From contig BTVI01000037.1 of assembly GCA_045862955.1 (NCBI GenBank), forward strand, positions 1 to 29,391: a DNA stretch of 29,391 nucleotides, read 5' to 3'. The number at the start of each line of letters is the position of its first letter. The stretch's first letter is position 1. This DNA is from Fimbriimonadales bacterium. GTDB lineage: Bacteria > Armatimonadota > Fimbriimonadia > Fimbriimonadales > JABRVX01. Position numbers and translations under genes: made by a program. The notes beneath the pieces are model-generated. The model ran no database searches. It was not told where the DNA came from and saw only the letters and a program-made list of their open reading frames with translations. This document shows, in pieces, positions 17,372 through 21,520 of this stretch.

Positions 17372-19141
17372 TCAAGCTCTTCCGACAGCAACCGCCCTGC
17401 TCGCGCGCTCTGCAAGCTGGTGGAGGAGCACTCGTTCGCGTTCGAGTGCGGCAAGCTCCGCCTCGAGAGCAGAGGACCTCGCCTGCCTCTGGCGGGCAAG
17501 TTGCTCCACTGCCTCCGTGATCGCCTGTTCAGTCTCGGCTGCGCGCTCGACTAGCTCCTGCGCGCACTTCTTCACCGTGGGTTCGATGCGTCGCACGAAG
17601 TCGTAGCGGATCCGGCCGCAGCTCATCTCGAACATCTCCCACAGCTTCGCTGTCACCGTGCGTTCGATCCACCTGCGCACAAACCGGGCCGGCAAGAAGC
17701 GCGCAATGATCCAAGCCTCCGGGCTAAGATGGACTTCCGCCTGCCAGCGAGCAAGCGAGAAGCGACTTCTGTCCGTCAGGCCTCCTCGGATGGCGAAGGA
17801 CTTCAACTGCACGCCGAAGGCGTCGGATGCCGCTTCATGAATCCCTTGGAGCGATGAGTCCATCTGCTGTGAGAACTCCTCGAGGACGCCTTCGAGACGG
17901 GCGTTGATCCGAACCTCCTCCTCCTGCCGCCAGGCGCCGAGGATGTTGTCTACGGTGTCGGCGATGCTTCTGCTTGCCTGCTGGAACGCTGCAGCCGCCG
18001 TAACTCTTGGTCCTACGTTGTCGAGGAAGGCCTTGAGCCTCACCAAGGCGTTGGGAAACTCCGCCCGCTTCAGTACCTCCAAGTCTTGCTCCACGGAAGC
18101 AACCAGGTCCTGACGGCTCTTCTCGCACAGCAGGAACAGGTTGCGCTCGCGCTCGGCGCGGAGCTTCTCGAGACGTGTAGTGAAAATGGTGAGACGGCTC
18201 TGAATCTCTTCGAAGGGCGTGGTCAGCACAGCCTGCTGGAGTGACAGCCTGGTACTCAGCACTTCCTCTGCTGCAGTAACCGTTCGCCGCGCAGACTGCA
18301 ATGCGACGGCGGCGCGCTCCGTCTGCAGGAAATCTGTTACCATGGCAACCAGGTTGCCAAAGCCACTCGCTTCGACCAGGTCGCCCCTGTACTTAGTAGT
18401 ACCCTCTAGGGCAAGCTTCGAAGATACTGCTATCACGGGCAGTGTTAGGTCGAGGCGCTCACGGATCGCCTCTCGGGTAAAGTCCAGCGCCTGCTCCAAC
18501 TCCGCCGGCGCCAACCTGTCCGCCTTGTTAACTACCACGAAAACACGTGGTACCTGTTCGCACACGGTCTGGAGGAACGTTGCTTCGGCGTCGCTCATGG
18601 GAGGATCCGACGACAGTACGAAGAGAGCTGCGTCGGCACTCGATAGAAACCCCCGCGCTGTCGCGGTGTTGTGAAGAAAGATGGAACCGGTGCCCGGAGT
18701 GTCAATGAGCTGCAGTCCGTCCGCCAGAATGGGAGCCGGCACCGAGACGACGGCGTGGTCTACCCCCTTCTCGTTGTCTGGATTGCCCAACTCCGTGATG
18801 TACTGCGGCAGATCTTCGACTGCAATCTCCGTGCCGGTCCGGTCCAGTTTCACTATACGAGCCGACAGCTCCCTTCCATAGCGCACGATGGTGATCGCAG
18901 ATGTCAGGGGTGTCAAGGCTGTCGGCAGCACTTCATGACCGATGAGGGCGTTGACCAGAGTACTCTTCCCACGCTTGAACTCGCCGAAGACCACCAAGTT
19001 GAAACGGTGTTCGGCGAGGCGAGCGCTCGTTCCGCGAAGGACCTCCGCTAAATGGCGCTCGGTGTGCCGATCTGCCAGGGATGCGAGCTGGTCGAGTACT
19101 TCCCGAAGCTCTCCCGCTGCAGTTGCGTGAGCCCCCATCAT
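17372..19141 (-). CDS. Bacterial dynamin-like GTPase (dynamin family protein)
   Basis: G1 GEFKRGKS, G2 LPTALTPLT, G3 LIDTPG and G4 VNKAD, followed by a long helical stalk. Confidence 0.93.
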   Translation of the reverse strand: MMGAHATAAGELREVLDQLASLADRHTERHLAEVLRGTSARLAEHRFNLVVFGEFKRGKSTLVNALIGHEVLPTALTPLTSAITIVRYGRELSARIVKLDRTGTEIAVEDLPQYITELGNPDNEKGVDHAVVSVPAPILADGLQLIDTPGTGSIFLHNTATARGFLSSADAALFVLSSDPPMSDAEATFLQTVCEQVPRVFVVVNKADRLAPAELEQALDFTREAIRERLDLTLPVIAVSSKLALEGTTKYRGDLVEASGFGNLVAMVTDFLQTERAAVALQSARRTVTAAEEVLSTRLSLQQAVLTTPFEEIQSRLTIFTTRLEKLRAERERNLFLLCEKSRQDLVASVEQDLEVLKRAEFPNALVRLKAFLDNVGPRVTAAAAFQQASRSIADTVDNILGAWRQEEEVRINARLEGVLEEFSQQMDSSLQGIHEAASDAFGVQLKSFAIRGGLTDRSRFSLARWQAEVHLSPEAWIIARFLPARFVRRWIERTVTAKLWEMFEMSCGRIRYDFVRRIEPTVKKCAQELVERAAETEQAITEAVEQLARQRQARSSALEAELAALERERVLLHQLAERASRAVAVGRA

Positions 19142-19206
19142 GGCGGACCGCCCCCTTCGGCGAATGCCAGGTGCCCATTCGGGGGCATCGAGATGTACAC
19201 AAACAT
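19138..19206 (-). CDS. Putative 22-aa leader peptide (MFVYISMPPNGHLAFAEGGGPP) coupled to the dynamin gene
   Basis: AGGAG SD 9 nt upstream of ATG 19206. Its TGA overlaps the dynamin ATG (ATGA). It is too short for the ORF track. Confidence 0.5.
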   Translation of the reverse strand: MFVYISMPPNGHLAFAEGGGPP

Positions 19207-19218
19207 TAGCTACGGCTC

Positions 19219-19857
19219 CTATCTGATCGTGCTTGTAGACAGACGCTCAGGAGCCATCAGCCTCGGCGGCGGTTCTCCCCACGGAATGGGAAGGCAGTCC
19301 TCCATTGCCTTTAACTTATTGTACGCCATGTCCGCTCCTCTCATCAGTCTCGACCCATGGGGAGCCACGCACCAGCCTAAGATCTGAGCCGGACTAGGCG
19401 AAGGAAAACTCGTAGGGCCTCTGCGAGCGCACAAGACGGACTGCCCGCCAACGCACACGAGTGCGAGCAGAATGCCCAGCAGCACCGGCACAATGCATCC
19501 CCGCAGACCCGAGGTCCGAAGGATCCAATAGGCACCCGACGTCAGGTTCTCGACCACCACGACTCTGTCGTTGCGAAAGGCGAGCAGCACCAAGTCTCCT
19601 CGACCCAGTTCGATCTCGCTCCCTGCATGGTCTCTGAACAAGAAGACCCTTCCCAGGCGTGAACCGCTGAGAATCACGGCGTGCGTTGACTTGTCTCCTG
19701 CTCGCCGCTCCCACGCCATGGCCACGGTGCCCGCGTAAGCTCGGAACACTGCATCGCACTTTCCGCACCGGTAGTACGTCGTCTCAGCCGGTCTTACCTC
19801 CGCTGCCATCTCGGCATGACACTCGGGGCACACGAGCCAGCTATCGCTTGCCGTCAC
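19219..19857 (-). CDS. Hypothetical zinc-ribbon membrane protein
   Basis: CPEC..CGKC at the N-terminus, a beta-rich middle and one TM helix (IVPVLLGILLALVCV). GGGGA RBS before GTG. The C-terminal tail overlaps the riboswitch. Confidence 0.7.
   Translation of the reverse strand: MTASDSWLVCPECHAEMAAEVRPAETTYYRCGKCDAVFRAYAGTVAMAWERRAGDKSTHAVILSGSRLGRVFLFRDHAGSEIELGRGDLVLLAFRNDRVVVVENLTSGAYWILRTSGLRGCIVPVLLGILLALVCVGGQSVLCARRGPTSFPSPSPAQILGWCVAPHGSRLMRGADMAYNKLKAMEDCLPIPWGEPPPRLMAPERLSTSTIR
19248..19311 (-). ncRNA. Fluoride riboswitch (crcB motif), variant
   Basis: Minus strand AAGGCAATGGAGGACTGCCTT...GAACCGCCGCCGAGGCTGATGGCTCCTG. P1 is AAGGCA/TGCCTT, with an AACC linker, a GCC/GGC stem, GCTGATG, and the GGAG/CTCC pseudoknot. 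It starts ~7 nt after a TACAAT -10. Confidence 0.8.
19318..19323 (-). promoter_or_regulatory. -10 element (TACAAT) for the riboswitch-dynamin transcript
   Basis: AT-rich patch positioned so that +1 falls at the aptamer 5' end. Confidence 0.6.
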
Positions 19858-19923
19858 GAGTTCCCCCGAGATTCGGTGGCTTGGGTGGCGGCATCCGTCT
19901 CCGGGAACGTGGTATCACGTGCC

Positions 19924-20301
19924 GTGGCTCTGACATGGTTCTGCCCCTACTGCTGGCGCGAGGTGTCCGAGGACGATGTAGGGTGCCCGCACTGCAACGC
20001 CAATCTTCGCACGCATCTCGACCTTCCGTACCAGCAGAAGCTCGTACTGGCTCTGAAGCACCCTCTGGCGCAGACGAGGATGACCGTCATTCGCTTGCTG
20101 GGCGAGCTCGGAGCTAAGGATGCCGTACCTGCTCTGGCGGAGCGCTTCAGCGAGACGAGCGATTACTACGAGCTGCGAGCCATCCTGACTGCGGCCCATA
20201 AGATCGAGGGAGACGAAGCTGCGGCACTGATTCGCGGTGCCCTGGATCACCCTTCCGCCCTGGTTCGTAGAGTGGCGCAGGCACTGCTCGAAGGGGAGTG
20301 A
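19924..20301 (+). CDS. Zinc-ribbon plus HEAT-repeat protein
   Basis: FCPYCW..CPHC followed by HEAT-like repeats (ALKHP..RMTVIRLLGELGAKDAVPAL; ALDHPSALVRRVAQALL). The start is uncertain. Confidence 0.85.
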   Translation: MALTWFCPYCWREVSEDDVGCPHCNANLRTHLDLPYQQKLVLALKHPLAQTRMTVIRLLGELGAKDAVPALAERFSETSDYYELRAILTAAHKIEGDEAAALIRGALDHPSALVRRVAQALLEGE

Positions 20302-20312
20302 GCGAGCCTCCA

Positions 20313-20954
20313 TCACCTCCGGCCCTCGTCCGCGACCGTTCTGGGCTGGCCACAGAGCTTCCTGAGCGCCTGCTTCCAGCTTCCCACCTCATCTCCCCAA
20401 GGCTCTCTCTGGTAACGATAGTCGTGGTGCCGGATAACGAGTTCTAGGGCTTCTGTCAGCGAGGCGAGTTTCGAGCGCTCGACCTTCGCGACCCACTCGG
20501 CGGTACCAGCATCGCAAAGCCGCAATAGCTCGGACAGGTGGGGGATGCAGAGCCCCTCCGAGGCCTCGTAGCGCGCACGCCAGGCAGGCTGGACTAGCAG
20601 CCGAGCCAGGTCCGCGCAGGTGCGCTTGGCGTGGTCCTCCATATCGGCGCAGATCGGGCATCGCCGGGTCGTCCGTCGTCCTCGGCCCAACTGCTGCACC
20701 TCGTGTAAGAGCAAGTCCTTGGCGATGATGGAGAGACCGAGCGGGTCGCCGAGCGTGATGTAATCCTCGAGGTGTGCGGTGCATAGGCCCCCCGAGTGCC
20801 GCAAGCGTGCTCGAACTGCCTCGTCGTTGACAAGTTCGTGAAACTGCGTTTCGATGCGCCGCTGGGCAGCAGCGCGAATCACCGTGCAGACTGGGCACCC
20901 CTCGTCCGACATCGCCTGTAGCAGGTCATCACGCAGGGGGCCGGTGTAGCTCAT
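20313..20954 (-). CDS. DUF6062-like protein (duplicated CPxC...GLCxxH zinc-binding module)
   Basis: GCPVC..GGLCTAH, CPIC..EGLCIPH and HDYRY..PWGDEVGSW. ATGA overlap with the upstream gene. Confidence 0.8.
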   Translation of the reverse strand: MSYTGPLRDDLLQAMSDEGCPVCTVIRAAAQRRIETQFHELVNDEAVRARLRHSGGLCTAHLEDYITLGDPLGLSIIAKDLLLHEVQQLGRGRRTTRRCPICADMEDHAKRTCADLARLLVQPAWRARYEASEGLCIPHLSELLRLCDAGTAEWVAKVERSKLASLTEALELVIRHHDYRYQREPWGDEVGSWKQALRKLCGQPRTVADEGRR

Positions 20955-21397
20955 TCATCCTTCCCTTCGGCCAGAAGGGCGGCCAGCCTGTCCGCAATGT
21001 CCCCGAATCTGTCTACCGCCTGTTGCAGCCGCTCGCAGGCGTGTGAGGGCGGGGACCCGTAGCGCTTTGCAACGCGTTGGGGCAGCAGTTCCGCATCAGC
21101 CTCATCATGCAGACCTTGGATCAGGACCCGAAGCCTTGCACGGGTGGTGTCTTCGGGCAGCGATGGACTGCCTTGGCCGCCGAAGAGGTCGCGGACAAGC
21201 CGGGTGAGTTCGCCAGAGAGCTCTTCGAGCATCTCGACGCACGCGCGGGGATCGCTCAGGGGAATGAAGATGCGGCCCCCATTGAGGGCATACCCGAGCG
21301 TAGCCATCATCTCCGCCTGCTCGAGTCGGCTCTGCAGGTATCTGCACGTGCTAAGAACGTGCAGGGCCCACGGCTCGGAGCTGTACTCGCTCATCAT
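20951..21397 (-). CDS. Hypothetical small all-helical protein
   Basis: 148-aa ORF of amphipathic helices directly downstream of a riboswitch and translationally coupled to DUF6062. Confidence 0.8.
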   Translation of the reverse strand: MMSEYSSEPWALHVLSTCRYLQSRLEQAEMMATLGYALNGGRIFIPLSDPRACVEMLEELSGELTRLVRDLFGGQGSPSLPEDTTRARLRVLIQGLHDEADAELLPQRVAKRYGSPPSHACERLQQAVDRFGDIADRLAALLAEGKDE

Positions 21398-21418
21398 CCA
21401 CCCCGCATCTGGCTCTCT

Positions 21419-21474
21419 GCAGGAGCTATCAGCAGGATCGCGGTTCAGCAGACGGCTCGGCGAGCTCCATCACC
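21419..21474 (-). ncRNA. Fluoride riboswitch (crcB motif), canonical
   Basis: Minus strand GGTGATGGAGCTCGCC-gagccgtctgct-GAACCGC-gatcct-GCTGATAGCTCCTGC. P1 is GGTGA/TCGCC, the pseudoknot is GGAGC/GCTCC, and AACCGC and GCTGAT are conserved. TAGAAT -10 at 21492-21497. Confidence 0.9.
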
Positions 21475-21520
21475 GGGTAGAGACCACCAGGATTCTACTC
21501 GATTCGCGCCTAAATGCAGC

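Follow-up and report, generated by a model that had tools for sequence, protein, structure and literature searches.

The window analysed here is a 29,391-nucleotide stretch of contig BTVI01000037.1 from the genome of a Fimbriimonadales bacterium (GCA_045862955.1; G000 below). On its minus strand, a fluoride riboswitch (RS1) stands before a gene for a membrane-remodelling GTPase of the dynamin family, and a 22-codon open reading frame (ORF) lies between the two. Aptamers were called with the Rfam covariance model RF01734 (gathering threshold 34 bits), which found two fluoride riboswitches in the window, RS1 and RS2, both on the minus strand. The locus was compared with that of a sister genome (G001) and with further fetched loci, which carry L-numbers. 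The features from the 5′ side of RS1 to the end of the dynamin gene are listed below; pN/pS is the ratio of non-synonymous to synonymous differences per site between G000 and G001.

19318..19323, minus strand: TACAAT, a −10-like hexamer a few bases 5′ of the aptamer; putative promoter, read by eye
19241..19318, minus strand: RS1, fluoride riboswitch aptamer with a hairpin insert (RF01734, 38.2 bits, E 2.4e-7)
19249..19261, minus strand: aptamer 3′ strand GCUGAUGGCUCCU, including the pseudoknot strand (from sequence and predicted fold)
19209..19220, minus strand: anti-aptamer strand AGGAGCCGUAGC with a Shine-Dalgarno (SD)-like AGGAG, paired with 19261-19249 in a 12-bp OFF helix in the minimum free energy and centroid folds
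19138..19206, minus strand: leader ORF of 22 codons; G001 preserves its start, frame and stop and differs at 7 of 22 residues; pN/pS 0.97
19148..19163, minus strand: predicted hairpin UCGCC...GGCGG over the SD-like GGCGGU of dynamin, in the fold of the G000 leader; G001 has the same sequence in both arms
17372..19141, minus strand: GTPase of the dynamin family; 589 aa if begun at ATG 19141, 588 aa if begun at ATG 19138, which G001 also has

By its covariance-model score and conserved motifs, RS1 is a real fluoride riboswitch. It carries the pseudoknot strands GGAG and CUCC together with the conserved AUG, AACCG and GCUGAUG motifs of the model alignment, and its copy in G001, identical at 61 of 64 aptamer nucleotides, scores 35.3 bits, above gathering. 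The TACAAT hexamer is found in both genomes; a consensus promoter scan gave no full site there. An earlier note on this DNA, made from the sequence alone, had pointed out that GGCUCCU (19255-19249) is complementary to AGGAGCC (19220-19214), and this was confirmed. The predicted helix is longer than the seven pairs then noted, with 12 bp and one bulge between GCUGAUGGCUCCU and AGGAGCCGUAGC, and the leader AUG follows two bases after it. From the anti-aptamer strand to this AUG, 16 of 17 nucleotides are the same in G001, with one G-G mismatch there. This complementarity is the ordinary anti-aptamer strand of the riboswitch class. The immediate U-tract that follows the hairpin in terminator-type switches is lacking from RS1: the best 8-nt window behind the core helix holds 3 U in both genomes (5 and 4 in a looser window), the tail being UAAUGUUUGUG in G000 and UAAUGUUA, with still fewer U, in G001. 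A terminator scan called none on the minus strand of the window.

Two other elements were noted on the 5′ side of RS1. Just 5′ of TACAAT, a hairpin (GGCUCCCC...GGGGAGCC, 19331-19366, minus strand) is perfect in G001, where it contains GAGGCUGAUG, a 10-mer identical to RS1's own 3′ strand; it is perhaps half of a decayed aptamer, or else a terminator without U. A zinc-ribbon, membrane-anchored ORF (19219-19857, minus strand; pN/pS 0.13-0.39, purifying selection) runs through the putative promoter and the entire aptamer. Its stop overlaps AGGAG in G000 and, after a 1-nt indel, falls at the aptamer end in G001. Read-through from this ORF could override RS1.

The leader ORF proved to be as the earlier note had described it. 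ATG 19206, 9 nt past AGGAG, opens MFVYISMPPNGHLAFAEGGGPP, and its TGA (19140-19138) overlaps the dynamin ATG 19141 (ATGA); the same TGA also overlaps ATG 19138 (TGATG). G001 preserves the AUG, the frame, the 22 codons and the stop, which changes from UGA to UAA. ATA replaces ATG 19141 in that genome, and the overlap common to both is URAUG with ATG 19138 (UGAUG in G000, UAAUG in G001). An out-of-frame upstream ORF (uORF) with a conserved stop/start overlap is directly seen here, in two genomes only. The 9-nt distance from GGAG to ATG is common in the source genome, whose 16S tail has CCUCCU, and in a crude reference set of 507 isolated starts from that genome only 5.7% are preceded by URAUG.

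We estimated how often such an arrangement would arise by chance by holding the helix strand fixed and dinucleotide-shuffling the remainder 20,000 times. An ATG 5-12 nt after AGGAG together with a stop overlapping the dynamin start appeared in 1.2% of shuffles for G000 and 0.5% for G001. Looser nulls gave 1.3-9%, the most permissive (any start codon, overlap bases kept) reaching 9% for G000 and 4% for G001. This is modest evidence beyond chance. In the codons of the peptide, the substitutions between the two genomes, small in number, comprise 3 synonymous and 8 non-synonymous changes, for a pN/pS of 0.97 vs 0.17 for dynamin, 0.30 for a DUF6062 protein and 0.50 for a 148-aa 'helical protein', the latter two encoded behind RS2. 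On this comparison, the leader peptide is drifting neutrally and is not a conserved peptide. Of the alignment of relatives that the earlier note had called for, the comparison with the sister genome bore out the start, frame and stop, but not the peptide.

The dynamin gene matches Pfam Dynamin_N (PF00350; E 1.8e-25, 90.4 bits, cut-off 27) and scores too low for the cut-offs that define the NCBIfam families DynA, LeoA and CrfC. With this domain and its P-loop motif it resembles other bacterial dynamin-like GTPases; its subfamily differs from them by a nearby fluoride switch in 55 of 80 loci. Among the 120 closest homologues listed, most begin 52 residues before the P-loop, the same as ATG 19141. 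The earlier note had also credited dynamin with an SD of its own. The element named, GAAGGGGG, is not conserved (GAACGAGG in G001), whereas the adjacent GGCGGU and its predicted partner UCGCC are.

Our data point to a real fluoride riboswitch and a real, neutrally evolving leader ORF, linked probably by a coupling relay that seems, from sequence comparison, to recur in the fluoride class. On balance we favour, with restrained confidence, a role for RS1 as a riboswitch-gated coupling leader, a translational ON switch acting through a content-free leader ORF; SD masking, leader translation and coupling are the steps that we infer. Without fluoride, the aptamer 3′ strand would pair with AGGAGCCGUAGC, hiding the leader SD and blocking ribosome loading at AUG 19206. 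With fluoride, the pseudoknot would retain the 3′ strand, leaving the SD exposed for ribosomes to load. These would read 22 codons, stop at the dynamin start and likely hand translation on to dynamin, either by re-initiation at URAUG or by melting the predicted hairpin over GGCGGU and allowing fresh loading. Rho polarity when the leader is idle may contribute, as rho is present in the genome. The most likely origin would be local, from a terminator-type platform in which the U-tract disappeared and an AUG arose.

Masking and coupling, as the earlier note proposed, are thus the best-supported reading of the locus, although inferred rather than demonstrated. They are favoured by the conserved start, frame and stop, by the apparent SD masking at the other switches of the genome and by recurrence elsewhere. 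In folding predictions that compare opening costs with the aptamer free and locked, locking lowers the cost at the G000 leader start from 10-12 to 6-7 kcal/mol. Both other fluoride switches of the source genome look, from their sequences, like SD-masking types, which we counted in favour of coupling at RS1. RS2 is predicted to mask the SD of its next gene directly, the start of which falls in opening cost from 13.0 to 5.2 kcal/mol upon locking. The third switch, on another contig before a cation:proton antiporter gene, masks the antiporter SD with the same 28-nt spacing as RS1.

To place RS1 among other fluoride switches, we built our own hidden Markov model (HMM), seeded with 125 regex-found sequences, which replaced regex surveys whose counts were unstable. 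It gave 236 matches in all fetched loci, from which removal of 41 (variant motif or short flank) and of duplicates left 163 platforms. A U-rich tail (at least 5 U in the 8 nt after the helix) was found in 102; 14 masked the SD of a long ORF and 9 that of a short ORF whose stop lay at the next start; 32 were classed as other and 6 were without a helix. This sorting is approximate: among the 'long' cases at least L046 is spurious, a number of direct cases ended up under 'other', and the loci are non-independent. By the same model, 55 of 80 metagenome loci had a fluoride switch no more than 250 nt from the dynamin start and 7 had one 250-3500 nt upstream, while 15 had none and 3 offered too little flank. 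Of 20 loci picked by hand, 17 also gave an Rfam match on the same strand. A scan of genome contigs with a single protein gave one distant locus.

The leader layout stands behind fluoride switches in three other lineages, before dynamin, crcB and enolase genes, with leaders unrelated in sequence. In L129 and L233, from two species of one genus, GUG and AUG respectively open the leader at a matching position after a strong SD; their UGA stops also match in position, over the region where enolase starts. Their leaders, of 58 vs 40 codons, are separated by one 54-nt in-frame indel and have a pN/pS of 0.70 (first 30 codons) vs 0.05 for enolase; no further relatives were found (2 of 18 genomes). In L027 and L050, which precede a dynamin 31% identical to ours, an AUG directly behind the masked SD opens leaders of 23 and 22 codons that stop 11 and 16 nt inside dynamin and share a hairpin over the dynamin SD. 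Here locking is predicted to lower the leader cost from 20-23 to 7-11 kcal/mol, while the dynamin start stays at 13-15. L127 has a 31-codon leader ending 13 nt into crcB, with no switching predicted; the other genome of its genus has no switch. L031, L074 and L195 are weak cases (GUG or UUG, an uncertain start, or 4 codons), and L145 was dropped once its real start had been set.

Altogether, the 13 cases of a masked SD on a short ORF form 10 groups, in 6 of which the stop falls within −5 to +20 nt of the next start, vs 1.6 expected (P ~0.001). Without G000 and G001 this becomes 5 of 9 groups (P 0.005), and without the two weakest as well, 3 of 7 (P 0.035). As the window was set post hoc and the main-gene starts were hand-picked, these statistics are only indications. 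Fluoride switches may have repeatedly evolved a third kind of platform, in which a fluoride-gated leader ORF of no particular sequence passes ribosomes on to dynamin, crcB or enolase; we put this forward tentatively, as a serious possibility that falls somewhat short of being probable. Under this proposal, the conserved CUCCU forces AGGAG into the anti-strand, so any AUG or GUG arising just behind it would create a gated leader ORF.

Several observations count against a coupling leader at RS1. AGGAG is dictated by complementarity to a conserved aptamer strand and is also found before the U-tract in terminator-type switches; it is therefore not independent evidence of an SD. The chance of the frame staying open across 11 substitutions is 0.7-0.8, so the open frame is no proof of function, and the corresponding chance for L129/L233 is 0.41-0.44. 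The leaders of L027 and L050 are in different frames. A tiny ORF behind RS2 ends in URAUG in both genomes, which means that such overlaps can be incidental. RS1 accompanies this dynamin (at E 1e-70) in just 2 of 228 genomes of the class, G000 and G001. The predicted cost of the G001 leader start barely shifts, from 5.3-9.9 free to 6.2-9.1 kcal/mol locked. In G000, locking also cuts the cost of the dynamin start, from 18-19 to 10.5-13.4 kcal/mol, which would permit a relay without the leader. Nor is that start unusually buried: in a crude sample of 150 isolated starts of the source genome, 15% cost as much as the G000 value and 28% as much as the G001 value. The ten aptamers nearest RS1 outside the genus, all from one other genus, have a hairpin, a U-rich tail and a separate SD before the gene. 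In the closest dynamin relative (38% identical; L016 of genome G153), the helix is poor in U and carries AGGGG, there is no leader, and the SD lies free, ~19 nt away from the helix. G153 is closest by dynamin alone, its aptamer ranking only 13th of 163 in similarity to RS1, and no further relatives of its type were found (1 of 3 genomes). Small shares of four RNA-labelled runs, three of them probably DNA, yielded scattered 150-300 nt pieces, none spanning the leader, and are evidence for neither side.

One rival reading is a switch that works by its hairpin alone, an alternative that the earlier note overlooked along with the forced AGGAG. The 12-bp helix would be a weak intrinsic or Rho-assisted terminator, or a structural relay to dynamin's own start at GGCGGU, and the ORF would be incidental. 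We regard this as unlikely, though very much alive. A U-rich tail is the majority form among the surveyed switches and is present in the nearest aptamers, of which the RS1 tail looks like a decayed form. The G153 locus does without a leader, canonical terminators (hairpin and U-tract) seem rare in the source genome (seen for 45 of 2937 long ORFs, with shadow frames counted), rho is present, and aptamer locking opens the dynamin start in the G000 models. Set against this are the absence of a called terminator on the minus strand, the poorer U content of the G001 tail and the failure of the predicted structural relay to appear in G001. The start and overlap are, moreover, uncommon in shuffles and recurrent across groups. 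A different history with the same relay today would make AUG 19206 the former start of dynamin itself, one base having been lost in the common ancestor and translation rescued at an internal Met, possibly with some fusion by frameshifting. The dynamin frame is indeed open for 35 codons upstream in both genomes (624 aa in all), and dynamins of the phylum with a masked SD have extensions of ~7-20 aa (L107, L109, L113-L116), or 31 aa in G185. This origin is nonetheless improbable: most close homologues start at the position of ATG 19141, and the upstream region shows no constraint in the dynamin frame, with a pN/pS of 1.89, on which we rejected it as dynamin coding sequence. Programmed frameshifting from leader to dynamin was likewise discarded, there being by eye no slippery heptamer common to the two genomes.

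The two identities suggested by the earlier note for the mini-ORF fared worse. Had a first gene (helical protein, DUF6062 or crcB) been deleted here, leaving only its start and a coupled stop, the resulting scar would have parallels: in L118 the helical protein lies directly 5′ of dynamin with an AUGA overlap, RS1's nearest aptamers stand before DUF6062 operons, and crcB/Fluc (PF02537) is absent from all three genomes of the family (G000, G001 and G002; 94-98% complete) and found in 17 of 18 other sampled genomes of the order. We judge a scar very unlikely, as the leader resembles neither the termini of the helical family nor other fetched DNA or protein beyond short chance matches, and has no match in Pfam or NCBIfam. 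The best non-self DNA match was 19 nt (E 8e-4), to the G001 leader only, and a crcB scar, suggested by the Fluc-like look of the G001 peptide, was dropped when comparison with 56 windows from Fluc N-termini gave background scores (P 0.46 and 0.17 vs 20,059 genomic ATG peptides). That the 22-residue peptide itself is functional, as a dynamin partner or a stalling peptide, we consider exceedingly improbable. The G001 peptide matches it at 15 of 22 residues and retains the C-terminal Gly-Gly-Pro-Pro, but the few substitutions fit neutral evolution and the leaders of other lineages share no sequence with it.

The nearest known system to the coupling leader proposed for RS1 is the Mycobacterium tuberculosis B12 switch, which mutation and tagging have shown to act on ppe2 by way of a uORF that overlaps the main gene as AUGA (PMC11260477). 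The SD hidden by that riboswitch belongs, as we propose for RS1, to a short uORF that is out of frame and whose stop overlaps the main start, and the uORF serves as a ribosome landing pad. For RS1, placement of the uORF SD in the strand captured by the aptamer is predicted in G000; in G001 little switching is predicted, and the SD is forced by complementarity. The B12-uPPE2 element differs in being an OFF switch for cobalamin that was shown experimentally, whereas RS1 is a predicted ON switch for fluoride, and PPE2 is without an SD whereas dynamin retains the SD-like GGCGGU. In Sinorhizobium meliloti, coupling uORFs with ATGA or 13-nt overlaps activate the main gene (PMC13285730, available portion), and the 13-nt overlap fits the geometry of L127, L027 and L050. 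The four uORFs are not described as riboswitch-gated in that portion; one upstream ribosome binding site lies inside the metA riboswitch, in frame with the gene.

Among fluoride switches, crcB RNAs with overlapping terminators were described by Weinberg in 2010 (PMC2864571), a paper whose main text and 8 searched supplement files make no mention of dynamin. The available text of bioRxiv 10.1101/2023.12.05.570056 gives terminator platforms for two switches, from B. cereus and T. petrophila, and refers to a translational one in an archaeon. RS1 is like these known switches in that the ligand-free aptamer 3′ strand is captured by a downstream complementary strand. It differs from the intrinsic-terminator platforms characterised there in having no proper U-tract, and in that the freed SD would serve a 22-codon ORF and not the main gene. 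In the part of PMC10043782 seen, uORFs are mentioned only for fungal thiamine pyrophosphate (TPP) switches. Our literature search, which did not cover subscription papers or bioRxiv supplements, found no paper on a fluoride riboswitch with dynamin, or with a leader peptide or coupling. A riboswitch-gated leader ORF was thus not found in print for fluoride; the principle of riboswitch, uORF and re-initiation has already been shown for the B12 switch, a precedent that limits its novelty. If true, a leader-ORF relay would join terminators and direct SD masking as an output of fluoride riboswitches and would account for some platforms that lack a U-tract and lie far from the gene. Such switches would look orphan, or like a 'terminator without U-tract', in annotation. 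The forced SD would explain how such relays arise independently, and a bacterial dynamin subfamily would be linked to a defined inducing signal, fluoride.

The neighbouring switch RS2 and the genes behind it lie at the following positions.

21413..21483, minus strand: RS2, second fluoride riboswitch (RF01734, 37.7 bits)
21394-21409, minus strand: tiny ORF of 3-4 codons inside the masking hairpin of RS2, ending UGAUG/UAAUG on the next gene's start in both genomes
20951..21397, minus strand: 148-aa helical protein, first gene behind RS2, with no family match and with relatives in fluoride-switch loci
20313..20954, minus strand: DUF6062 protein (PF19538, E 3.8e-22)

These genes belong to a recurring fluoride regulon in which DUF6062, the helical protein, an antiporter, a Usp-like protein and dynamin stand behind one switch (L156:5329-11137 and other dynamin loci). 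In the window, a convergent HEAT-repeat gene (19816-20301, plus strand) and the zinc-ribbon ORF separate the part of this regulon behind RS1 from the part behind RS2. G000 has three fluoride switches despite lacking crcB/Fluc. The CPA2-like cation:proton antiporter of the third switch, right behind an rRNA operon (L013:4414-5742), is a candidate fluoride exporter.

Two further arrangements were noted among the fetched switches. In the dynamin switches of L046:3832-3990, L069:3822-3960, L073:3864-3960 and L074:240-370, the anti-aptamer strand GGGGUAGG, once freed, is also complementary to CCUACCCC, which overlaps a further hairpin or terminator; read by eye, this would form a two-step structural relay. 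Paired same-strand fluoride switches, ~170-830 nt apart, occur in L214/L222 (G331:C11), L197 (G112:C22) and L159 (G185:C18).

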